Shown here one piece after another: positions 61-45,600 of a stretch of 64,000 bases of DNA. Both the position numbers and the translations under genes were made by a program. Every line of letters begins with the position of its first letter. Positions within the stretch are counted from its first letter, which is position 1. The stretch covers positions 35,774,001 to 35,838,000 of the forward strand of contig NC_135803.1 in the NCBI RefSeq assembly GCF_964213995.1. Direction: 5' to 3'. Below the pieces are notes generated by a model. The model worked only from the letters and a program-made list of their open reading frames with translations, had not been told where the DNA came from and made no database searches. Origin of the DNA: Mustelus asterias (lineage: Eukaryota).

Positions 61-607
61 TGTGGTAAAAGACTGAAACCACTCAAGTCTGTAAGTTGCA
101 GTAATTGAGACTTTATTCACAGCTGTGCTTAGGAGATATAACCTGCTCCTACAGGGTGTCTGCCTGATGCAAAGGCTGCATAACTAATTTATATCTATTG
201 ATTATCATCCTTGTACTATAAAATCATAAACAGCATTATACAGGATGTTAGGTAGCAGTAATTTATCTAACTGAAGTCTCTGCTTCTTATCACACTTCAG
301 TTTACCCATCCTGTGAGAGTCGTTAATTGTATGATTGTTACTTTCCCACGCCGGCATACTGAATAAATTGTATTAAGTTGATCTTTCTCTGCAACCTAGC
401 TACGACTGCAACACTATATTCTGCCCCTCCCCGTTCCTTCTCCCCTCTGTATTCTATGAACGGAATGCTTTGTCTGTACAGCATGCAAGAAACAATACTT
501 TTCACTGTATACCAATACATGTGACAAATCAAATCAAAATAACTAAAGTTGTTGATGCTCATTACTACATTTACCTACTTCAAAGCTGTTAATGTCGAAT
601 TATTTCA
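61..607 (-). repeat. 3' LTR (interrupted by a Rex1 tail at about 357-540)
   Basis: TGTGGTAAAAGACTGAAACCACTCAAGTCTGTAAG... aligns with 9833 onward; minus-strand AATAAA at 111-116; PPT-like AAGTGGGGGTAAT on the minus strand at about 608-620. Confidence 0.8.
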
Positions 608-1402
608 ATTACCCCCACTTCAGTCCCTCCATTTGGACCCCGGTCAGGCACTACCTGGCCCATGTGGACCATTCCCAAGGTCCTCTGCTCACCAGGAGCA
701 CCAAGGATCCTACTAGAGACTAATGTGCTTTGAGTTGCTGCCCTACCATTCTCTTGCAGCTTTTCCCAAGTCCTGTTGACCGAAAATAGGCCCGGAACCA
801 TCACTTCATCAAATTGCAAAATCTTCATAAATGTTCCTAATTTTGTATTTCCTGGGAGGGAAGTGTCAGTAGCAATGAATATCAATATGTACCCTTCATT
901 GGCCAGCATTACCATCTGTACTGCTTGGGATACCATTAGTCTCTGATAACAATGAATACAGAGACCAACTATTAAGAGCGCAACAGGCATAACTGCTGCT
1001 GTTACTCTTCTTCCAACCAGTCGTACTGCATTCTTACTATCCTGGCCAGATTACTGGTTGAGACTGCCAATTTCCTAGCCTTTCCTGTGACCAGAGTCAC
1101 GTGCACCCGTCCCTTGGTGACTGATGATGGCTTTGTTCCAAAAAAATCACATGAGAAAAATCAGAGCCCTTTCCATTGCTACCCAAGCTGTTCAACCTGG
1201 GGTGTGGTCGATGTTTTATGTACTGTCCGACCATAAACTGAGGGCCATGTCTGCAAGATGAAAATCCTCTTCCATAAAGATGTCTGATCTGTAAGCAGAA
1301 GATGTGGTTATTATCAAACACCGATCTTCCATATTGGAATCTTATCCTGTCCATCAGAAGCGCGACTATGCAAGGGGAGGATTGGACTACCTTGAAGTTC
1401 CC

Positions 1403-1718
1403 TTTTTTTTTTGTTTCTATTCCAATTCAATCAAATCCAGTCCAATTCAGAGTCTCAACAAGTTGAGACATTCCCGATCCAACCTGACAAGACAGGGCTT
1501 TCACCTCCTGTCTTGGGCTTGATCTACATGATCCAAGCTGATTGGAGTAGGCATAGCTCCTCCTCCAAGGCTTGATCTAATTTGCATCTCAGCCAAAAGG
1601 CCGAGATGCCGCTTTTAAAAATTGCTTCAAATGAAGCTAAAATGTAACCTAATAACTTCAACCAAGCACAGCATGTCAATACTACACTTGATCTTAGCCA
1701 AAAGGCCGAGAAGCTGAT
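1403..1718 (-). mobile_element. U2 snRNA-headed structured retroposon (SINEU/Keno-like) with an A-rich tail
   Basis: 1679-1718 matches U2 nt 1-39 (ATC[A]GCTTCTCGGCCTTTTGGCTAAGATCAAGTGTAGTAT), followed by a non-U2 body with four hairpins and an A10 tail at 1403-1412. Confidence 0.8.
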
Positions 1719-2009
1719 GGGTTTCAGGATATTACAGGGGCAGATGCTGTAATGCTGTGATTCAATGTAACTGCCAGAATGGCGCACCTACCAATTTCCT
1801 TCCATCCCCAGGAATTTGAACATATATCCACCCTGGTATGTTCCGCTATTATGCTGTTGTGGTGTACTCACCAGAAATTTCATTGTGTCTCCCTTGCCTC
1901 CAGTACTTTGCAACTACTAACTAACTAATCCATATCATTCTTCTTGTAAGTTGAAACTTACAGGTCTAATTTCTCCACAGCCTGATATATTCATAGATTC
2001 CATGCTGTG

Positions 2010-2300
2010 CAGAAGGAGGCCATTCGGCCCATCAATTCTACACCGACTCTTCGACAGAGCATCCTACCCATGCCCTTTCCCCGTAACCTTATGTATTTAC
2101 CCTGCTAATCCCCCTAACCTATACATCCTAGGACACTAAGGGACAATTTAGCATGGCCAATCCACCTACCCTGCACACCTTTGGACTGAGAGGAAACTGG
2201 AGCACTTGGAAGAAACCCACGCACATTGAGAATGTGCAAACTCCGTACCAACAATCACCCTGTGAGGCAGCAGTGCTAACCACTGTGCCACCATGCTGCC
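2010..2300 (-). mobile_element. HE1-type SINE with CR1-derived tail
   Basis: Reverse complement of the tRNA head and V domain; tail GGGCCGAATGGCCTCCTTCTGCAC. Confidence 0.85.
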
Positions 2301-2798
2301 CAAATGTTGAGGTGCAGTACCAAATCTGGTTTAACATTATCTATCAACATGTCACATGCCATCCCCTTAGACTGTGAGTACTCATATTAATGATTTTTAA
2401 CCCTCCAGCAATACCTTCCCCTGATCTTGAGTAGCTGTGATTTTATTTGGTTCCATGCACTGCGAATTGCATGTTGGCGCTTTGTTACCTCGCAGGCATA
2501 AGCGCTGTGACTTACGTTTTGCCCAATCAACCGATAAGGTCAAGATGAGGTTGGTTAAAATGTAGGTCACCTCCAGCATAAACATTGTAACGTCATGTTA
2601 TATCACTTTGGGTTTCCTCTAATTATCCCATCTGGGGATGGTGACATGGTGGCTGGGAACTTAGTGGGTTTCTGATATCTGCACATTGATAAATTAAAAC
2701 ATCGTGTATTGCCACAAACAAATTGATTGCTAACATCTATACAACACTCTTGACAGTATTGCCCCTCCAATCCCGGTCCCCAGACAAATGGGGACACA

Positions 2799-3675
2799 TT
2801 AGTCCATCCAGCATGGATAGACGATTGGTTAACTAACAGAAAGCAAAGAGTGGGGGTAAATGGGTGTTTTTCTGGTTGGCGATCAGTGACTAGTGGTGTG
2901 CCTCAGGGATCAGTGTTGGGATCGCAATTGTTTACGATTTACATAGATGATTTGGAGTTGGGGACCAAGGGTAGTGTGTCAAAATTCGCAGATGACACTA
3001 AGATGAGTGGCAGAGCAAAGTGTGCAGAGGACGCTGAAATTCTGCAAAGGGATATATATATATATAGTCTAAGTGAGTGGGCAAGGGTCTGGCAGATGGA
3101 GTACAATGTTGGTAAATGTGAAACCATCCATTTTGGTAGGAATAACAGCAAAGTGGACTATTATTTAAATGGTAAAAAATTGCAGCATGCTGCTGTGCAG
3201 AGGGACCTAGGTGTCCCGAGTTGAGAGGGTTGGCTTATGAGGAGAGACTGAGTATTCTGGGGCTATATTCATTGGAATTCAGAAGAATGAGGGGAGATCT
3301 TATAGAAACATCAAAGATTATGAAGGGAACAGATAAGATAGAAGCAGGGAAGTTTTTTCCACTGGAGTGAAACTAGAACTCGGGAGCAAGGCCTCACAAT
3401 AAGGGGGAGCAGATTTAGGACTGAGTTGAGGAGGAACTTCTTCACACAAAGGGTTGTGAATCTGTGGAATTCCCTGCCAGCAAAGCAGTTGAGGCTACCT
3501 GATTGAATGTTTTTAAGGCAAGGATAGGTAAATCTTTGAACAGTAAAGGAATTAAGGGTTATGGTGAGCGGGCGGGTAAGTGGAGCTGAGTCCACGAAAA
3601 GATCAGCCATGATCTTATTGAATGGCTGAGCAGGCTCAAGGGGCCAGATGGCCTACTCCTGCTCCTAGTTCTTAT
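2799..3675 (+). mobile_element. CR1 LINE 3' fragment with internal deletions
   Basis: GVPQGSVLG and KFADDTK RT motifs; CR1 3' end GGCCTACTCCTGCTCCTAGTTCTTATG. Confidence 0.9.
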
Positions 3676-4119: not shown

Positions 4120-4560
4120 ATATAAGGTTTCACCTGTGACAAATAATCCCAAGCATACACACGTGTCTCTAGTCATCATCATCATCCAGTAAGGTCCTTG
4201 CTACCGTGGGGTAGATTCAGATCATTTTGGTGCCCCCTTAATCATAATTTTATCCTCTACATCTGGCATGTCCTGGGCAAAACTACTTCCCCTTACTTCT
4301 TCCCAGGTCCACTACCTCCTGCTGATGTATCACCCCGGATCTCAATTCCTTAAGCTGTCTACAGAACTCTACAATGCCCCTTCTTATCATATCTTTCAAT
4401 GGCCAGTATCTTCACTTCCGGGCAGTTCCCTCTGGGAGGCGCATAACTCTGCCTGTGGTCATGGTGCTACTCCTGTGTTCCTAATTGTTGTATCTTGTAA
4501 GTGTATTAATATGATCATGGATACATTCACCTATCCTTTCCTTATTCTCCATTTACCTGA
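4120..4560 (-). pseudogene. Integrase C-terminal remnant of the LTR element
   Basis: Manual translation gives IILIHLQDTTIRNTGVAP*..TGRVMRLPE, then VEDKIMIK...PR*QGPY...LSQVKPY (GPY/F module), with stops and frameshifts. Confidence 0.7.
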
Positions 4561-5699: not shown

Positions 5700-7267
5700 T
5701 TTTCTCACTGCACTGGACACTCATTTTCTCATTACACCAGACGCACCAGTTTTCCCACTACACCAGACGCACTGGTTGTCTGACTACATCGGACGCACTG
5801 GTTTTCCCGTTACATCGGACATACTTGTTTCTCACTACATCCGACGCGCGGTTGTCTCACTACACCAGACGCACTGGTTTTCCCATTACACCAAACGCAC
5901 TGGTTTTCCCACTACAGCAAACGCACTGGTTTTCCCACTACACCAGACGCACTGGTTTTCCCACTTCACCAGTCGCACTGGTTTTCTCACTACACCAGAC
6001 GCACCGGTTTTCCCACTACACCAGACGCACCGGTTTTCCTACTCCACCAGACGCACCGGTTTTCCTACTCCACCAGACGCACCGGTTTTCCCACTACACC
6101 AGTCGCACTGGTTTTCCCACTACACCAGTCGCACTGGTTTTCCCACTACACCAGACGCACCGGTTTTCCCACTACACCAGTCGCACTGGTTTTCCCACTA
6201 CACCAGACGCACCGGTTTTCCCACTACACCAGACGCACCGGTTTTCCCACTACACCAGACGCACCGGTTTTCCCACTACACCAGACGCACCAGTTTTCCC
6301 ACTACACCAGACGCACCGGTTTTCCCACTACACCAGACGCACCGGTTTTCCCACTATACCGACGCACCGGTTTTCCCACTGCACCAGACGCACCAGTTTT
6401 ACCACTGCACCAGACGCACTGGTTTTCCCACTACACCAGATGCACCGGTTTTCCCACTACACCAGACGCACCGGTTTTCCCACTACACCAGACGCACCGG
6501 TTTCCCCGCTACACCAGACGCACCGGTTTCCCCGCTGCACCAGACGCACCGGTTTCCCCGCTGCACCAGACGCACCGGTTTCCCCGCTACACCAGACGCA
6601 CCGGTTTCCCCGCTACACCAGACGCACCGGTTTCCCCGCTACACCAGACGCACCGGTTTCCCCGCTACACCAGACGCACCGGTTTCCCCGCTACACCAGA
6701 CGCACCGGTTTCCCCGCTACACCAGACGCACCGGTTTCCCCGCTACACCAGACGCACCGGTTTCCCCGCTACACCAGACGCACCGGTTTCCCCGCTACAC
6801 CAGACGCACCGGTTTCCCCGCTACACCAGACGCACCGGTTTCCCCGCTACACCAGACGCACCGGTTTCCCCGCTACACCAGACGCACCGGTTTCCCCGCT
6901 ACACCAGACGCACCGGTTTCCCCGCTACACCAGACGCACCGGTTTCCCCGCTACACCAGACGCACCGGTTTCCCCGCTACACCAGACGCACCGGTTTCCC
7001 CGCTACACCAGACGCACCGGTTTCCCCGCTACACCAGACGCACCGGTTTCCCCGCTACACCAGACGCACCGGTTTCCCCGCTACACCAGACGCACCGGTT
7101 TCCCCGCTACACCAGACGCACCGGTTTCCCCGCTACACCAGACGCACCGGTTTCCCCGCTACACCAGACGCACCGGTTTCCCCGCTACACCAGACGCACC
7201 GGTTTCCCCGCTACACCAGACGCACCGGTTTCCCCGCTACACCAGACGCACCGGTTTCCCCGCTACT
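5700..7267. repeat. 26-bp minisatellite (ACACCAGACGCACCGGTTTCCCCGCT), about 60 units, inside the LTR element
   Basis: Period 26, consistent with the 26-aa translated repeat (3 units). Degenerate on the left, homogeneous on the right. Confidence 0.95.
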
Positions 7268-16392: not shown

Positions 16393-17367
16393 AAATCTGC
16401 TCTTTAAGGACATGTTCTATTTGGCTGGTGATGGTTGTTTTTCATCTTGAGTTGTCATGTGAAGGGTTGATTTTGACTGCACGTGCAGAAGTGAGTCAAA
16501 ACAATGAACATAGTCAAATAAATTTCATATTTGTTCAGAAAATCCAAAATTTGGATATATTTAACATAAACAATGATGCTTCTTATGTTGTTAAAAATAT
16601 GGTGTTTGTACTATTTGGCTGTTTCCTTTTAAGTCACAGTGACGAAGGAGCAAATCATTCCTGAAAGTACTTTGACAATGTATGCCCCATTCAAGCTGGC
16701 ATCTCTGAAATTAAACATAAAAGTATCGGATTTGAAATGAATTCAAACTTAATGTTAAGGAAAAAGGAAAACAACCAAAAGGGGGAATGTTATTTTAAAA
16801 TAGCATTCCCCATCCATCCCCTAAACGTTTCTCTTTGAAACCAGAGCTACTGAAGACCGCATTTGTGGTCTGCAATTCAGACATGAAACTGTCAGTTGTT
16901 CAAGCTGGATAATGGAGATCAATCAATCTGTCAATAAAGCTATTAATGCATTATCTTTAGCAACTTCAGAGAGATTACAGATGCCAAACTAAATAATAAA
17001 CTGGATGCGAGAAACAGAAATTGCAGAGAAAGATAAAAACATCTCATTACATTTAAAGATATAAACTGAAAATTATCCTCTGACCGGAGGACCGGATATA
17101 ATTTCTTCCTCTTACTGAAACTATAATAACTAGCTTAAACCACTAGGATTGTGGCATCCTAATGTTGAATACAGTTATAACTTATTCCCCAGATAATGCT
17201 GATTTTTAAAAATCTGTTCATGGAATGTGGGCATTACTGACTAGGCCAGCATTTATTGCGTATTACTAATTGCCCTTGTGAAGGTGGTGGTGAGCTGCCT
17301 TCCTGAACTGCGTAAGAAGTTTAACAACACCAGGTTAAAGTCCAACAGGTTTATTTGGTAGCAAAAG

Positions 17368-17412
17368 CCACACAAGCTTTCGAGGCTCTGAGCCCCTTCT
17401 TCAGGTGAGTGG
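17368..17412 (-). ncRNA. Minimal hammerhead ribozyme (inverted-arm copy)
   Basis: Reverse complement of 21583-21627. Confidence 0.8.
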
Positions 17413-17689
17413 GAATTCTGTTCACAAACAGAACTTATAAGACACAGACTCAATTTACATGAATAATGGTTGGAATGCGAATACTTACAACTAATCCAGT
17501 CTTTAAGAAACAAAACAATGGGAGTGGAGAGAGCATCAAGACAGGCTAAAAAGATGTGTATTGTCTCCAGACAAGACAGCCAGTGAAACTCTGCAGGTCC
17601 ACGCAACTGTGGGAGTTACAAATAGTGTGACATAAATTCTGATTCTAGGATCGCATGATAAAGACTCAGGAGGAAAAAAGCAGAAATAT

Positions 17690-20020
17690 TTATGTGAAAT
17701 AGTGTGACATAAACCCAATATCCCGGTTGAGGCCGTCCTTGTGTGTGCGGAACCTGGCTATCAGTTTCTGCTCCGCGACTCTGCGCTGTCGTGTGTCGCG
17801 AAGGCCGCCTTGGAGAACGCTTACCCGAATATCAGAGGCCGAATGCCCGTGACCGCTGAAGTGCTCCCCAACAGGAAGAGAACAGTCTTGCCTGGTGATT
17901 GTCGAGCGGTGTTCATTCATCCGTTGTCGCAGCGTCTGCATAGTTTCCCCAATGTACCATGCCTCGGGACATCCTTTCTTGCAGCGTATCAGGTAGACAA
18001 CGTTGGCCGAGTTGCAAGAGTATGTACCGTGTACCTGGTGGATGGTGTTCTCACGTGAGATGATGGCATCTGTGTCGATGATCCGGCACGTCTTGCAGAG
18101 GTTGCTGTGGCAGGGTTGTGTGGTGTCTTGGTCACTGTTCTCCTGAAGGCTGGGTAGTTTGCTGCGGACAATGGTCTGTTTGAGGTTGTGCGGTTGTTTG
18201 AAGGCAAGAAGTGGGGGTGTGGGGATGGCCTTGGCGAGATGTTCGTCTTCATCAATGACATGTTGAAGGCTCCGGAGGAGATGCCGTAGCTTCTCCGCTC
18301 CGGGGAAGTACTGGACAACGAAGGGTACTCTGTCCACTGTGTCCCGTGTTTGTCTTCTGAGGAGGTCGGTGCGGTTTTTCGCTGTGGCGCGTTGGAACTG
18401 TTGATCAATGAGTCTAGCGCCATATCCTGTTCTTATGAGGGCATCTTTCAGCGTCTGGAGGTGTCTGTTGCGATCCTCCTCATCCGAGCAGATCCTGTGT
18501 ATACGGAGGGCTTGTCCGTAGGGGATGGCTTCTTTAACGTGTTTAGGGTGGAAGCTGGAGAAGTGGAGCATCGTGAGGTTATCCGTGGGCTTGCGGTACA
18601 GTGAGGTGCTGAGGTGACCGTCCTTAATGGAGATGCGCGTGTCCAAGAATGCAACCGATTCCGGAGAGTAGTCTATGGTGAGCCTGATGGTGGGATGGAA
18701 CTTGTTGATGTCATCATAGAGTTGTTTCAGTGATTGTTCACCATGAGTCCAAAGGAAGAAAATGTCATCGATGTATCTAGTGTATAGCACCGGTTGAAGG
18801 TCCCGTGCGGTGAAGAAGTCTTGTTCGAACCTGTGCATGAAGATGTTGGCATATTGAGGTGCAAATTTGGTCCCCATGGCTGTTCCGTGTGTCTGGATGA
18901 AGAACTGGTTGTTGAAGGTGAAGATATTGTGGTCCAGGATGAAGCGGATGAGATGTAAAATTGCATCTGGAAACTGGCAGTTGTTGGCGCTGAGCACTGA
19001 GGCCGTTGCAGCAATGCCATCGTCATGGGGGATGCTGGTGTAGAGTGCTGAGACATCCATTGTGACGAGGAGCGCTCCTGGTTCAACTGCTCCATGTGTG
19101 CCGAGTTTCTGTAGGAAGTCCGTCGTGTCGCGACAAAAGCTGGGGGTTCTTTGTACAATGGGTTTCAGGATGCCCTCGACATAGCCGGAGAGGTTCTCGC
19201 ACAGGGTCCCATTGCCCGATACGATGGGACGGCCGGGTGTGTTTGCCTTGTGTATCTTCGGGAGGCAGTAGAGATCTCCAACGCGGGGAGTACGTGGGAT
19301 GAGAGCACGGAGGGTGTTCTGAAGGTCCGGATCAAAGGTCTTGATCAGAGTGTTGAGTTGACGGGTGTGTTCTTTGGTCGGATCTGCAGGTAACTGTCTG
19401 TAGTGTTCCTCGTTGTTGAGTTGTCGGTACACTTCTTTGCAGTAATCCGTTCTGTTCAGTATGACGATGGCCCCTCCTTTGTCTGCTGGTTTGATGACAA
19501 TGTTGCGGTTGGTCTTGAGAGCGTGGATGGCGTTACGTTGTGCTTGGGTGATGTTCGGGGCTGTCTTGTGAGTGCGGCTGATGAATTTGGTGTTGACGCA
19601 CCTCCTGACGGCTTGGGCATACATGTCAAGTCGAGGGCAGCGGCCTTCCGGAGGAGTCCAATTCGACTCTTTCCTCTTCGGATGCACTGCGGATCTCTCT
19701 GTCGGCTGTTCCAGTTCATTGGCTGTCTCATTGTGTTCGTTGTTGGCCTCTTGGGGTTTGTGGAAGAACTCCCTCAGCCTCATTCGCCTGATGAATTCCT
19801 CTGTGTCTGCTGCGAGACTGATGGGGTCTATTTTGGTGGTGGGGCAAAAATTAAGCCCTCGGCTGAGAACTTCGATTTCATCTGGTTGAAGTGTGTAGTC
19901 GGACAAGTTGACAATGGACTTCCCTGCAGTGGGACTGTTTCCTACTGTGGTACCGGGGGAGGCTTGGTTGCTGCTGGTGGTGATGCCGAGTTTCTCAAGT
20001 TTCCTGTTCTTGGTGTGCAT
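17690..20020 (-). CDS. Penelope-like polyprotein: reverse transcriptase + Cys-rich linker + GIY-YIG endonuclease (5'-truncated; in-frame ATG at 20020)
   Basis: Uninterrupted ORF with IKPADKG, YCLPKIHK, GRPIVS, TMDVSALYTSI, GTAMG, RYIDD and AFLD; linker PCHSNLCKTC; endonuclease VVYLIRC...YIGET...RMNEH. Confidence 0.95.
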   Translation of the reverse strand: MHTKNRKLEKLGITTSSNQASPGTTVGNSPTAGKSIVNLSDYTLQPDEIEVLSRGLNFCPTTKIDPISLAADTEEFIRRMRLREFFHKPQEANNEHNETANELEQPTERSAVHPKRKESNWTPPEGRCPRLDMYAQAVRRCVNTKFISRTHKTAPNITQAQRNAIHALKTNRNIVIKPADKGGAIVILNRTDYCKEVYRQLNNEEHYRQLPADPTKEHTRQLNTLIKTFDPDLQNTLRALIPRTPRVGDLYCLPKIHKANTPGRPIVSGNGTLCENLSGYVEGILKPIVQRTPSFCRDTTDFLQKLGTHGAVEPGALLVTMDVSALYTSIPHDDGIAATASVLSANNCQFPDAILHLIRFILDHNIFTFNNQFFIQTHGTAMGTKFAPQYANIFMHRFEQDFFTARDLQPVLYTRYIDDIFFLWTHGEQSLKQLYDDINKFHPTIRLTIDYSPESVAFLDTRISIKDGHLSTSLYRKPTDNLTMLHFSSFHPKHVKEAIPYGQALRIHRICSDEEDRNRHLQTLKDALIRTGYGARLIDQQFQRATAKNRTDLLRRQTRDTVDRVPFVVQYFPGAEKLRHLLRSLQHVIDEDEHLAKAIPTPPLLAFKQPHNLKQTIVRSKLPSLQENSDQDTTQPCHSNLCKTCRIIDTDAIISRENTIHQVHGTYSCNSANVVYLIRCKKGCPEAWYIGETMQTLRQRMNEHRSTITRQDCSLPVGEHFSGHGHSASDIRVSVLQGGLRDTRQRRVAEQKLIARFRTHKDGLNRDIGFMSHYFT

Positions 20021-21091
20021 GTAGATGGTGTAGTTCTTGGTTGCTGCTGGTGGTGATGCCGAGTTTCTCAAGTTTCCTGTTCTTGGTGTGCATGTAGATG
20101 GTGTAGTTCTTGGTTGCTGCTGGTGGTGATGCCGAGTTTCTCAAGTTTCCTGTTCTTGGTGTGCATGTAGATGGTGTAGTTCTTGGTTGCTGCTGGTGGT
20201 GATGCCGAGTTTCTCAAGTTTCCTGTTCTTGGTGTGCATGTAGATGGTGTAGTTCTTGGTTGCTGCTGGTGGTGATGCCGAGTTTCTCAAGTTTCCTGTT
20301 CTTGGTGTGCATGTAGATGGTGTAGTTCTTGGTTGCTGCTGGTGGTGATGCCGAGTTTCTCAAGTTTCCTGTTCTTGGTGTGCATGTAGATGGTGTAGTT
20401 CTTGGTTGCTGCTGGTGGTGATGCCGAGTTTCTCAAGTTTCCTGTTCTTGGTGTGCATGTAGATGGTGTAGTTCTTGGTTGCTGCTGGTGGTGATGCCGA
20501 GTTTCTCAAGTTTCCTGTTCTTGGTGTGCATGTAGATGGTGTAGTTCTTGGTTGCTGCTGGTGGTGATGCCGAGTTTCTCAAGTTTCCTGTTCTTGGTGT
20601 GCATGTAGATGGTGTAGTTCTTGGTTGCTGCTGGTGGTGATGCCGAGTTTCTCAAGTTTCCTGTTCTTGGTGTGCATGTAGATGGTGTAGTTCTTGGTTG
20701 CTGCTGGTGGTGATGCCGAGTTTCTCAAGTTTCCTGTTCTTGGTGTGCATGTAGATGGTGTAGTTCTTGGTTGCTGCTGGTGGTGATGCCGAGTTTCTCA
20801 AGTTTCCTGTTCTTGGTGTGCATGTAGATGGTGTAGTTCTTGGTTGCTGCTGGTGGTGATGCCGAGTTTCTCAAGTTTCCTGTTCTTGGTGTGCATGTAG
20901 ATGGTGTAGTTCTTGGTTGCTGCTGGTGGTGATGCCGAGTTTCTCAAGTTTCCTGTTCTTGGTGTGCATGTAGATGGTGTAGTTCTTGGTTGCTGCTGGT
21001 GGTGATGCCGAGTTTCTCAAGTTTCCTGTTCTTGGTGTGCATGTAGATGGTGTAGTTCTTGGTTGCTGCTGGTGGTGATGCCGAGTTTCTC
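19963..21091. repeat. Tandem array of about 15.5 x 73-bp units derived from the Penelope ORF N-terminal coding segment
   Basis: TGATGCC recurs at 19981, 20054, 20127 and onward (period 73). The minus-strand unit encodes NYTIYMHTKNRKLEKLGITTSSNQ. No unit variants were seen by eye. Confidence 0.95.
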
Positions 21092-21582
21092 TCAAATCAC
21101 CAGGCAAGACTGTTCTCTTCCTGTTGGGGAGCACTTCAGCGGTCACGGGCATTCGGCCTCTGATATTCGGGTAAGCGTTCTCCAAGGCGGCCTTCGCGAC
21201 ACACGACAGCGCAGAGTCGCGGAGCAGAAACTGATAGCCAGGTTCCGCACACACAAGGACGGCCTCAACCGGGATATTGGGTTTATGTCACACTATTTCA
21301 CATAAATATTTCTGCTTTTTTCCTCCTGAGTCTTTATCATGCGATCCTAGAATCAGAATTTATGTCACACTATTTGTAACTCCCACAGTTGCGTGGACCT
21401 GCAGAGTTTCACTGGCTGTCTTGTCTGGAGACAATACACATCTTTTTAGCCTGTCTTGATGCTCTCTCCACTCCCATTGTTTTGTTTCTTAAAGACTGGA
21501 TTAGTTGTAAGTATTCGCATTCCAACCATTATTCATGTAAATTGAGTCTGTGTCTTATAAGTTCTGTTTGTGAACAGAATTC

Positions 21583-21627
21583 CCACTCACCTGAAGAAGG
21601 GGCTCAGAGCCTCGAAAGCTTGTGTGG
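21583..21627 (+). ncRNA. Minimal hammerhead ribozyme in the Penelope 3' region
   Basis: CAC-CUGAAGA-A-GGGGCUCAGAGCCUC-GAAA-GC-UU-GUG. Core CUGANGA/GAAA, stem I CAC/GUG, stem II GGGGC/GCCUC, palindromic AAGCUU in place of a full stem III. Confidence 0.8.
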
Positions 21628-22310
21628 CTTTTGCTACCAAATAAACCTGTTGGACTTTAACCTGGTGTTGTTAAACTTCTTACTGTGTTTACCCCAGTCC
21701 AACGCCGGCATCTCCACATCATTCCTGAACTGCTACAGCCCATATGGTGTTGTAGGTACACCCACAGTATTGTTAGGAAGGGAGTTCCAAGATGTTGACC
21801 CAGAGACGGTGAAAGAATGGCGATACAGTTCTAAAAACTAGTATTGTGCTCTTGGTGATCATTAGTAGATGGATTCTGCACTTCCTTATTGGTGGCTTTG
21901 GAGATAGTTGGGGGCTTGTAAAATGCAGCAGCTAGCTTTCCCACCACATTCCTGTAAACCCCTGACTGGTATAAGATTTTATAAGGGGCAGTGAAGATAT
22001 TAGCTGCCCACACACTCTTGAGACTATTGAAGCCCATAATGGCCTTGCTGCTGTTTTGCCCATGGCAGAAGGAGGTTCATGCCAAGTGGGTAGCATGGCA
22101 GCTTTAGCTGGTGTCAAGCAAATTGGGGGGACATTCTTTGCAGGCTCCTTGTACTTAGCAGAGGCAGCACTTAATTTGCCTGAGGGTGACTGCAAGGCGG
22201 CCATTCTTTCCCTGGGTGGGATTCACCAACTTTGTAGCTCCTCCTAACATCCAGCCTGATATTAATTATATTTTATCTGGATAGAAAGTAACTCAGTATA
22301 TGTGAGTAAT

Positions 22311-23998: not shown

Positions 23999-24085
23999 AA
24001 GAGCCTAAATAAAACTGCAGGGGAAGACCAATATTCTGACGCCAGGAAGGAAGTACTGACCCACATGTGCTCTCGACCAATGCAA
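23999..24085 (+). CDS. DIS3L2: DIS3L2 exon ([29 protein letters not shown])
   Basis: ttaaacag|AAG ... CAA|gtaag; 87 bp, phase 0-0. Matches recalled human [29 protein letters not shown]. Not in the ORF track. Confidence 0.95.
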
Positions 24086-25765: not shown

Positions 25766-25871
25766 TTTACCCTTGTTTCTTATGTATTATCAAGTTAATT
25801 AGCTTCATAATCAAGTTTTTATTAAAATTAGAGTGCAGATAACACACTGAACACATACGTGTCACAAGTAC

Positions 25872-27308
25872 AACATAGAACAGTACAGCACAGAACAGGC
25901 CCTTCGGCCCACAATGTTGTGCCGAGCTTTGTCTGAAACCCAGATCAAGCTATTTCCTCCCTATCATCCCGAAGTACTCCATGTGCCTATCCAATAGCTT
26001 CTTAAATGTTCCTAAAGTTTCTGACTCCACTATCCCTGCAGGCAGTCCATTCCACACCCCAACCACTCTCTGCGTAAAGAACCTACCTCGGACATCCTTC
26101 CTATATCTCCCACGATGAACCCTATAGTTATGCCCCCTAGTTACCGCTCCATTCACCCGAGGAAATAGTCTTTGAACGTTCACTCTATCTATCCCCCTCA
26201 TCATCTTATAAACCTCTATCAAGTCTCCTCTCAACCTCCTCCGCTCCAAAGAGAAAAGCCCAAGTTCCCTCAACCTTTCCTCATAAGACCTACCCTCCAA
26301 ACCAGGCAGCATCCTGGTAAATCTCCTTTGCACTCTTTCCAGTGTCTCCACATCTTGTAGTGAGGTGACCAGAACTGCACACAATATTCCAAATGTGGTC
26401 TCACCAAGGTCCTGTACTGTTGCAGCATAACCCCACGGCTCTTAAACTCAAACCCCCTGTTAATGAACGCCAACACACTATAGGCCTTCTTCACGGCTCT
26501 ATCCACTTGAGTGGCAACCTTCAGAGATCTATGGATATGAACCCCAAGATCTCTCTGTTCCTCCACATTCTTCAGAACCCTACCTTTGACCCTGTAATCC
26601 ACATTTAAATTTGTCCTACCAAAATGAATCACCTCGCATTTGTCAGGGTTAAACTCCATTTGCCATTTTTCAGCCCAGCTCTGCATCCTATCTATATCTC
26701 TTTGCAGCCTACAACAGCCCTCCACCTCATCCACTACTCCACCAATCTTGGTGTCATCAGCAAAGTTACTGATCCACCCTTCAGCCCCCTCCTCCAAGTC
26801 ATTTATAAAAATTACAAATAGCCGAGGACCAAGCACTGATCCCTGTGGCACTCCGCTGGTAACCAGTTTCCAGTCCGAAAATTTTCCATCCACCACCACC
26901 CTCTGTCTTCTGTTAGATAGCCAGTTACCTATCCAATCAGCCAAACTTCCCTCTATCCCACACATCCTTACTTTCTTCATAAGCCGACCGTGGGGGACTT
27001 TATCAAACGCCTTACTAAAATCCATGTATATGACATCAACTGCACTACCTTCATCTACACACTTAGTTATCTCCTCAAAAAATTCTATCAAATTTGTGAG
27101 GCAAGACTTGCCCTTCACAAATCCGTGCTGACCATCCCGGATTAAGCTGCATCTTTCTAAATGGTCGTAAATCCTATCCCTAAGGACCTTTTCCATCAAC
27201 TTACCGACCACCGAAGTAAGACTAACCGACCTATAATTACCAGGGTCATTTCTATTCCCTTTCTTAAACAGAGGAACCACATTCGCCACTCTCCAGTCCT
27301 CTGGCACC
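25872..27308 (-). mobile_element. CR1 LINE (RT domain to 3' end), inserted into a SINE tail
   Basis: ORF 26270-27307 has [35 protein letters not shown] and FADDTK; frameshifted continuation at 25950-26384. Confidence 0.93.
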
Positions 27309-27609
27309 AGTAGGCTTACATTAGGCTAATGTAAGTAGGCTTACATTAACCCTGCAATGGCATTACTGTGAAAATCCCCTAGTCGCTGCACTTGGGCGCC
27401 TCTCCAGGTATACTGAGGGAGAATTTAACATGGCCAATGCACCTAACCAGCACATCTTTTGGACTGTGGGACAAAGCCAGAGCACCCAGAGGAAACCCAC
27501 GCAGACACAGGGAGAATGTGCAGACTCCATACAGACAGTGACCCAAGCTGGGAATCGAATCCGGGTCATTGGCGCTGTGAGGCAGCAGTGCTAACCTCTG
27601 TGTTGCCCT
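27309..27609 (-). mobile_element. HE1-type SINE (second tail type)
   Basis: tRNA head and V domain; tail interrupted by the CR1 at 25872-27308. Confidence 0.88.
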
Positions 27610-42659: not shown

Positions 42660-45600
42660 ATTCAAGGTCTATTTTCCTTGAGTTTCAAATAGTACTGGAG
42701 TTTGTATAAGATTGATAAATATCTAAAAAAATAAATAATTGAGTTAATTAAAGCTCATAAGTATGGCAGGACTGGTGATGTGTCAAGGCATGTGGAAATG
42801 CTTGGATACTGATGTTATCCAGAGCAAGCACATTTTCTGTAAGTGTCTGGGGCTTTAGGAGCTTTGACTCAGTCATTGAGCTAAAGGCTGAATTGCAGGC
42901 ACAGTGACACATCAAGGAGGGTGAGAGTTACCTGGATGCTTTGTTTCAGGAGGTGGTCACACCTGCTGGGATAGGATCTTCTGGTTTGGAATGTGGTCAG
43001 GGACAGGAGTGTGTGACTGCAGCTGAGGCAGTTAAGAGAACCCAGAGGGCAGGAGTGTCAGCCACTGCAATTGTCCAACAGGTTTGAAGTTATTTCAGCA
43101 TGTTTGGAGGGGCTGCAGGGTGGATGAGCTGACTGACCATGACACTGTGGTGCAGGAAGCCATTCAAGTGGGGAGAGCACATAAGAATGTAGTGGTAGTA
43201 GATTAGAGAAATGAATGCATGGCTCAAAGACTGGTGTAGAAGAAATGGGTTCTGGTTCATGGCACACTAGTACACATACTGGGGAAAGTGGGATCTGAAC
43301 AATTGAGACAGTTTACACCTGAACTGTGCTGGAGCTGATATTCTAACAAGTTGCATAACTAGGGAAGTAGAGAAAGTTTTAAACTAAATAGTGGGGATAA
43401 AGAATCAACTTTGGGAAGATATGGTAAACTAAAGAGACAAGGCAAGAGATGTAGGTACTTGATATGGAAATGATAGATTGTGACAGAAAGAAAGAGAGAG
43501 TAGAAATTTAAGAGTAAATCAGTAGATAAGGCTGGATGTGACAAAAATAAAAAAAGGCCAAAGCTTAAGCTCTGTGTCCAAGTACACACAGCATTTGAAA
43601 CAAAACATACTGATAGTGCAAATAGAAATTAATAAATACAATCTGATAGCCATTACAGAGACATGGCAACAGATGACATAGATTGGGACCTGAATATTGA
43701 AGGGTCTGTGACATTTAGGAAGGACTTGAAGTTAAGAAAGGGTGGAGAGGTAGCTCTGTTAATTAATGATGGTATTAGCTCATCAGAAAGAGAGGACCTA
43801 AATTCAGGAAACCAGGATGTTGAAGTTTTTGTTGATGTGATGACTTCAGCCGGGCAAATGAGGTTGGCCTGCTGGAGTATGAACTCGCTCCCAATCAGGG
43901 AGCCACGTATTCCCTATTTAAAGCAGGTGTGTCAGTCTCTCTCTCTAGCAGGAAGCTTAACTGAGTGCACTGGGTTGTATAGTATGTTGTGTAAATAAAG
44001 GAACTGCTGGTGACGGGACCATTTTCCCCGTGGATTTATTACATTTGAGATGAGAAGTGATAAAGGCAATAAGTCACTTGTGGGAATGGTGTACCACTCC
44101 CCTAATTATAACCATGTAATAGGGCAGAGTATAAAAGAAGAGATATTAGAAACGTACTGCAATAATCATGAGGGATTTTAATCTACATGCAGATTGGAAA
44201 AATCAGGTGGACAAAGGTAGCATAGATGAGGAGTTCATAGAATGTTTACAGGATAGATTCTTAGAATATTTAACACGTTCTGGAGCCAACTAGAGGGCAC
44301 TCGACTGTAACGAGATAGGATTAATTGATAACCTCTTAGTAGCACCAATCATAATATGATTGAATTTTACATTCAATTTGAGGGAGAGAAGAATATGTCC
44401 AAGCCTAGTATTCTAAACTTAAATAAGGGTCACTATGAGGGCAAAAAAGTGGTTCTAGCTAAAATGAACTGGCAAATATGAAAGTGATAGATCAACAGAG
44501 GCTCAGTGGCAGACATTTAAAGGGACATTTCAGGAAAATACAGAATCGACACATTCCAATGAGAAAGAAAAAATCCAAGGGAAGGACCCACCATCATCTG
44601 TAGTTAACTAAAAAGGTTAAAGGCAGTGGCTGGAATTCTTTGGTCTCACATGCCCCGCTCCAGCTGCCAATGAGAATGCCAAATCTCTGTTCACAGCAGT
44701 GGGACCAGAGAATCCCAGCCACTGATGAGGTCAGAGATTCTGCCCAGTATTAAACTTGAAGAAAAAGCATATATTTGCTCAAAGACAAGTGACAGGTCAG
44801 AAGATTGGAAAGGATATTAAGAACATCAAAGGATGACAAGAAGATTTGATAAGGAAGGAAAAACTAGAGTATGCGAGAAAGTTGGCCAATGATGCAAAAA
44901 CAGATTGTAAGAGTTTCTATAGATATTTAAATAAGAAAATAGTTAACTAAGTGAGCACTAGTCCTATAGAAAATGCATCTGGGGAATTGCTAATGGAAAG
45001 TAGGGCTATGGCAGATGAATTAAACAGGTATTTTGCATCTGTCTTCACAATAGAGGACACAAGTAACATCCCAGAAATAGCTGTGAATCAGGAAATGGAA
45101 GGGAGGGAGGAAATTTACACCCACCAAGGAAGTGGTATTGAGCAAATTGGCTGACAAATCCTCTGGTCTGATGGACTTTATCCTAAGTCTTGAAAGTAGT
45201 GGCTAATGAGATAGTTGATGCATTGGTTTTAATTTTCCAAAATTCCCTAGATTTGGGGAAGGTTCCATGAGATTGGAAGATAACAAATGTAACTCCTTTA
45301 TTCAATAAGGGAGGGAGACAGAAAGCAGGAAACTATAGGCCAGTTAGCCTAACATCTGTCACAGGGAATTAGAAACCATCATTAAAGATATTTTAGCTGG
45401 GCATTTGGAAAATTTCAAGACAATCTCACCGAGTCAACATGGTTTTGTGAAAGGGAAATTATGTTTAACCAAGTCATTGGTGTTCTTTGAGGGAGTCATA
45501 TGCGCTGTGGATAAAGGGGAACTGGTGGATGTACTGTACTTAGATTTCCAGAAGGCATTTGATTTCCAGAAGGCATTTGATAAGGTGCCACATCAAAGGT

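Follow-up and report, generated by a model that had tools for sequence, protein, structure and literature searches.

How does a retrotransposon come to carry, at the end where its copying stopped, more than a kilobase of perfect tandem repeats of its own sequence? The question is raised by a stretch of 64,000 nt of the genome of Mustelus asterias (contig NC_135803.1 of assembly GCF_964213995.1, positions 35,774,001 to 35,838,000; hereafter the window, numbered from its first letter). Here a Penelope-like element (PLE) was inserted as two inverted, 5'-truncated arms within one target-site duplication (TSD), and a 73-nt array stands at the 5' junction of its long arm. The structure is real in the assembly and unusual, and it belongs to a known kind of junction insertion. 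Re-copying of element sequence at 5' junctions is family-wide, and the array is the longest and purest junction insertion of its kind that we found, an extreme case of stutter. We propose that it arose by repeated DNA-templated re-priming during 5' joining, a reading to which we assign a probability of about one half.

Architecture of the insertion

The array spans 19963-21091 (1,129 nt, or 15.47 x 73 nt), and the assembly sequence shows 100% matches at period 73. The parts of the insertion are as follows (element positions count the A of ATG as 1).

17300-17311, no strand: left TSD copy, 12 bp, TTCCTGAACTGC, inside an old interspersed repeat; single in unoccupied homologues
17312-20035, minus strand: long arm of the 5'-truncated PLE, element positions 337-3060; first 112 codons missing
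17690-20035, minus strand: native part of the open reading frame (ORF), with reverse transcriptase (RT), CX4CxxC linker and GIY-YIG-type endonuclease; stop-free; Neptune-type by motif (as defined in parts of PMC8557442)
19963-20035, minus strand: native 73-nt unit NYTIYMHTKNRKLEKLGITTSSNQ, element positions 337-409; 100% match in at least 41 places listed
20036-21091, minus strand: added sequence of 14 whole units and 34 nt of a further one (positions 376-409); 1,056 nt, variant-free
21092-21094, plus strand: filler TCA, 3 nt, from array to short arm
21095-21683, plus strand: short inverted arm, element positions 2472-3060
21684-21721, plus strand: Penelope 'tail', 38 nt, found directly before ATG in tandem copies; such tails are known from PMC11167929 and parts of PMC8557442
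21722-21733, no strand: right TSD copy, 12 bp, TTCCTGAACTGC; single in unoccupied homologues

An earlier note, made from the letters of this DNA alone, had described about 15.5 identical copies at a 5' truncation junction, a TCA joint to an inverted second copy, a single 12-bp TSD, unmutated arms and ORF, and a stop every 219 nt on the sense strand. All of this description was borne out: the period-73 identity covers exactly the interval given above with no variant, the frame is open, and one stop per three units is seen on the sense strand of the array. The sequence TTCCTGAACTGC occurs only at 17300 and 21722, and it is single in eight of eight unoccupied copies of the flanking repeat (seven distinct sites, among fetched loci); it is therefore a true TSD. 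The inverted arms (17312-17900 and 21095-21683, 589 nt each) are 100% complementary, and over its 2,724 nt the long arm shows no difference from the young copies that is private to it, with at least 29-fold cover at each site.

The open frame runs from 17690 to 20140 (816 aa, stop to stop), and its product matches Pfam RVT_1 (E 3.9e-10). The endonuclease was recognised in the translation by its motif (VVY...C...C...YIG...H...H), Pfam giving no GIY-YIG match. The element is an endonuclease-bearing (EN+) PLE, with RT and C-terminal GIY-YIG with CCHH, an inverted pseudo-long terminal repeat layout, a 30-40-nt tail and a TSD. The linker CHSNLCKTC upstream of the endonuclease fits CX2-5CxxC, which by the definition in parts of PMC8557442 is present in Neptune, absent from Penelope and Poseidon, and shared with Naiad endonucleases; judged by this motif the element is probably of Neptune type. 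It resembles EN+ Neptune insertions as described in parts of PMC8557442, PMC11167929 and PMC3846280 in its RT and C-terminal GIY-YIG, its linker and 5' truncation, and in the inverted second arm, the 30-40-nt tail at one end and the TSD. A 17-nt direct repeat with copies 77 nt apart spans the ORF end (17620-17713 and 21282-21375); the sequence between its copies (element about 2675-2739) is present in the youngest subfamily and missing from older subfamilies.

The array is private to this locus. Its family is a large, active one: a 28-mer matches the genome exactly at 4,512 places, and a 12-mer closer to the 3' end does so at 44,727. The monomer ends at element position 3060. Of 30 loci, 29 have one copy of the 73-nt stretch with ...GAGACAAAGG before it, and the thirtieth is the array locus itself; a 24-mer across the unit-unit junction has 15 genome matches, all at the array locus. 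Membership of the array in the family consensus is thus ruled out, as the earlier note had supposed. Its suggestion that the joints formed on a CAAG/AG microhomology did not survive the comparison: the native upstream sequence ...GAGACAAAGG shares one base (G) with ...AACCAAG, and every unit-unit joint in the array has 1 nt of microhomology, this G. A ribozyme or structured-RNA boundary of the unit was also rejected, on the lack of any Rfam match in 17200-21800 (minimal hammerheads can escape Rfam) and on the weak fold of the unit (-3.1 kcal/mol).

Re-copying at 5' junctions in the genome

The genome was searched at 14 element positions for a 12-13-mer repeated within 150-200 nt. Fetched loci (numbered with the prefix L) held 207 duplication clusters, of which 22 without element on the 3' side were dropped, leaving 185 element-anchored clusters in which a few loci are counted twice. 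The anchors sample only part of all junctions. For one anchor 100 of 123 matches were listed, many of them cross-matches between positions, and 50 were fetched; for another, 30 of 72 matches came as loci and 3 more were fetched.

Arrays with other unit boundaries, which the earlier note had asked for in family copies, recur at 5' junctions. Most clusters (152/185) end within 60 nt of the 5' end of the arm, and 24 extend beyond 150 nt. Among unselected inverted junctions (n=50), re-copies of at least 10 nt were present in 6, overlaps of 1-5 nt in 17, and 7 were blunt. Clusters within 100 nt of the junction (n=161) held two anchor copies in 144 cases, three in 10, four in 3, five in 2, eight in one and 16 in one. 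Note that the 16-copy cluster is the studied array itself, the starting point of the survey, and contributes no frequency. Three or more copies were found in 17 of 161 clusters at junctions and in 2 of 24 inside elements. The period of re-copying has a median of 38 nt across the family (a length-biased figure), and unit boundaries vary from locus to locus. At clean joints (77 of 204 pairs) microhomology was 0 nt in 15, 1 nt in 15 and 2-4 nt in 31, against a random expectation of 54% at 0 nt.

The cluster with eight anchors (L542, G000:C22:66,194,000; L542:1500-1700) consists of about 11 degenerate units of 16-17 nt between the arms of an older PLE. It is a minisatellite born at a junction, and it exemplifies the route from PLE joints to new minisatellites that the earlier note had envisaged. 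Another locus (L533) carries about six 15-nt units. Three further genome searches, with three-copy 11-mers, mostly drowned in minisatellites of other origin: in one, 100 of 1,473 matches were listed (to contig C13), one returned no PLE-linked array among 71 matches, and one returned a single PLE-linked array (L443) among 33 matches. Long arrays at L396, L413, L551, L565, L154 and L546 contain the anchor word with no element arm nearby and were excluded from the count.

Several other patterns were seen among these loci. An 18-nt duplication between two GATGAT words (element 2290-2313) recurs independently at many loci (e.g., L353, L360, L365, L377-L379), both at junctions and inside elements. 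Many of the loci with re-copies (L079, L092, L121, L133, L158, L164, L181, L191, L568) are near-perfect palindromes whose arms end at an equal element position, some with mirrored filler, which suggests that their second arm was made by fold-back synthesis rather than twin priming. Large palindromes with internal deletions or nested inversions mirrored in both arms occur at L027/L028 (G000:C2:129.53 Mb), L070 and L342.

A long interspersed nuclear element (LINE) in the window served as control (25860-27310, minus strand, 5'-truncated; RVT_1 E 1.8e-33; relatives 98-99% identical); we take it to be CR1/L2-like. With one LINE anchor, 8 LINE duplications were found among 100 matches listed, 4 of them at the 5' junction. 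With a second anchor there were 12 clusters, 5 at the junction, and two of the clusters (L475, L485) had 3-4 units and, as in the studied array, a partial unit at the end. Copies ending within 60 nt of the anchor numbered 5/29 for the PLE and 1/29 for the LINE. The rough rate of re-copying per junction is consequently 22/(44,727 x 5/29) = 0.29% for the PLE and 4/(37,611 x 1/29) = 0.31% for the LINE. The non-Penelope LINE thus has a 2-4-copy stutter of the same kind at its 5' junctions, at a roughly similar rate, and the trait is therefore not tied to a telomerase-related RT; the specificity to Penelope elements implied by the earlier note is not supported.

Elsewhere in the window, two exon-like open stretches on the plus strand (16846-16992 and 23999-24082) flank the insertion on either side. 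A 26-nt minisatellite of 59 copies (5733-7266) is homogeneous at its right end and degenerate at its left, and three long stop-free frames cross it.

Template, mechanism and rival explanations

Which template was re-copied? A unit of pure element sequence fits equally a cDNA end re-copying RNA and a partner end copying cDNA, so that the answer must come from units of mixed content. One locus with zero mismatches and a 13-bp TSD (L541), as young as the studied insertion, carries three copies of a 76-nt unit made up of the ends of both arms together with the centre of the inversion. Repeat units contain host flank at L188, L383 and L544, and the joint or its filler at L395, L530 and L179; at L071 and L092 the fills are in sense orientation seen from either arm. 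Units with host flank, inversion joint or sense fills are not readable from element RNA, and therefore had a DNA template. At least nine loci require a DNA template and none requires RNA (a need for RNA could not, by construction, have been shown at any of them). Derived variants common to several units at L542, L133 and L122 point to copying of the product.

The proposed mechanism starts from the target site. Frangieh et al. (PMC11167929) show nicking and extension on both strands of the target by a PLE protein, the subsequent steps being unvalidated; two cDNA ends would result, and these would need joining. Two cDNAs primed from both target strands would have to join 3' end to 3' end. The end of the short arm may have primed on the exposed cDNA of the long arm, first at 376 and then at the tip, 337, via one G:C pair; it would have copied to 409, released and re-primed. 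A memoryless model of copying gives a probability of 8e-15 for 16 copies; later cycles must therefore have been easier than the first, and a second regime is needed. The simplest such regime is realignment on whole-unit homology: once two whole units had formed, 73 nt of homology would be available for realignment in place of a single base, and the cycle would run away. The candidate polymerases are the element's own RT, acting on DNA, and a host polymerase of end joining or repair.

There are precedents for the steps of this scheme, which we cite from parts of the papers concerned. Microhomology-mediated end joining (MMEJ) by DNA polymerase theta (Pol theta) makes iterative, minimally paired templated insertions (PMC12426944, PMC2895639, PMC4912351). 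As at the family junctions, pieces are re-copied beside the joined ends in repeated rounds with 0-4 nt of priming, giving a patchwork of direct, snap-back and untemplated pieces. At R2 5' junctions the 3' end of the cDNA primes DNA-templated, snap-back synthesis before joining (PMC11371274), and R2 template jumps use 1-2 nt (PMC8857657); ZfL2-2 junctions hold extra nucleotides (PMC2666801). However, the 5' junctions of retrotransposons lacking long terminal repeats (non-LTR) described in these parts hold single extra segments or whole-template tandems, in contrast to the 15-fold repeat of a terminal 73 nt found here. Nothing found in the literature searched describes arrays of several copies at the 5' junctions of PLEs, although supplementary junction tables might hold cases.

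Several observations weigh against DNA-templated re-priming at this locus. The studied unit is pure element sequence and does not tell its own template, so the case is built on other loci; there, multi-copy units across the joint could have multiplied after insertion, and three-copy arrays also occur internally (2/24 clusters). Among the fetched loci no other array with units of at least 60 nt exceeds three copies, and the runaway step draws on few cases. The LINE denominator is 1 in 29 loci, which makes the equality of rates good to an order of magnitude only. Finally, the error rate of Pol theta is a few per thousand. In the parts of PMC12426944 and the other MMEJ papers cited, known Pol theta insertions are error-prone and generally shorter than 25 bp, unlike the median period of 38 nt, the units of 70-150 nt and the 1,056 nt without error seen here. 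Pol theta alone fits the length and accuracy of the array poorly; these may point to the element RT acting on DNA or to another repair polymerase.

One rival explanation is growth after insertion. Junction arrays lie inside TSDs, and therefore at least a seed duplication arises at integration; to this extent the earlier note was right to derive the array from the integration event. The seed, a junction duplication of 1.5 or 2 copies, could then have expanded by slippage or unequal exchange as a variable number tandem repeat, which we hold to be rather unlikely. In its favour, many young minisatellites of this genome have no PLE link (31 nt x15 at L551, 26 nt x40+ at L413, and the 26 nt x59 array in the window), variants are common to units among the roughly 11 of L542, clusters of at least three copies make up a similar share at junctions and within elements, and a heavy tail is expected if expansion accelerates with length. 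Against this, the studied insertion has neither a private mutation in 2,724 nt nor a variant in 1,129 nt, and dozens of older junction duplications (2-4% diverged) with comparable unit lengths have not gone beyond 2-3 copies. If growth were driven by time, long arrays should be the old ones, and the studied long array is young. That the assembly inflated the copy number, the real joint having one or few extra units, is very improbable. No reads were seen spanning the array, and the unit-unit joint is not among the Logan contig pieces listed. But the array measures 1.1 kb, the assembly (3.68 Gb) has chromosome-scale contigs, other loci have arrays built in the same geometry, and a 100-nt contig from tail to flank (21703-21802) has a depth of about 21 in runs X15 and X16, near the flank depth. 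This contig has 19 element letters, under the 31-letter rule for bridging, and gives no copy number; contigs of runs X17 and X18 end their cover at 21826, with no bearing on the array.

The earlier note had favoured reiteration on RNA, akin to telomerase. In a modified form of this idea, the RT would have run off a broken RNA at 336/337 and hopped to its 3' end (409) some 15 times, the template being a 73-74-nt fragment, crossed by an end-to-end jump via one base pair, or a ligated RNA circle. In favour, all 15 joints agree and none carries an extra base, as expected of a circle, and an error-free kilobase fits an RT. In parts of the papers cited, moreover, jumping by R2 RT works best when a +1 or +2 overhang can pair with the end of the template (PMC8857657), a 120-nt template is turned into concatemers by DRT2 (PMC12039810), and rolling-circle mobilisation has been proposed for PLE-linked retrozymes (bioRxiv 10.64898/2026.07.22.740005). 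Fixed re-entry sites at L363 and L079 fit a fixed template end, and a DNA template equally. We nonetheless regard this explanation as quite unlikely. Telomerase and DRT2 likewise produce head-to-tail repeats of one template stretch, but in their case, as described in parts of PMC12039810, the RNA is structured and dedicated to the task, its template is defined, it has a sequence for alignment or priming, and the unit is constant. Here an alignment sequence of about 5 nt at both template ends is replaced by 1 nt, and in place of a fixed template boundary there is a weakly folding unit, without an Rfam match, that is unique to the locus in a family with other boundaries at each locus. At all loci that reveal their template it is DNA, and the LINE control unties the trait from a telomerase-related RT. 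Non-LTR retrozymes, which share PLE-linked tandem arrays and a proposed rolling-circle origin (bioRxiv 10.64898/2026.07.22.740005; PMC7229834), are in the parts cited hammerhead-bearing mobile families, unlike this single locus with its unit of ORF sequence. Because an ordinary LINE shows the same stutter, there is at present no evidence for telomerase-like RNA repeat addition; such a reading of the array is a minority view. In its boldest form, which we also think unlikely, a Neptune-type Penelope RT would lock into processive repeat addition, with an RNA fragment, broken or circular, or the end of its own cDNA as the 73-nt template, and lay down a kilobase minisatellite error-free in one integration. 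Taken as a whole, the interpretation in the earlier note is partly supported.

Junction footprints and the joining of Penelope arms

The thousands of junction footprints in this genome bear on the way in which the two arms of Penelope elements come to be joined. These footprints show repeated DNA-templated re-priming at about one in ten junctions, with a heavy tail that reaches up to a kilobase array. They lead to a direct test of whether the RT of the element or a host repair polymerase seals the 5' ends of retrotransposons. If processive repeat addition by the Penelope RT were true, the array would be a trace in the genome of processivity like that of telomerase, in the sister group of that enzyme. 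The footprints also show new minisatellites originating at insertion joints.

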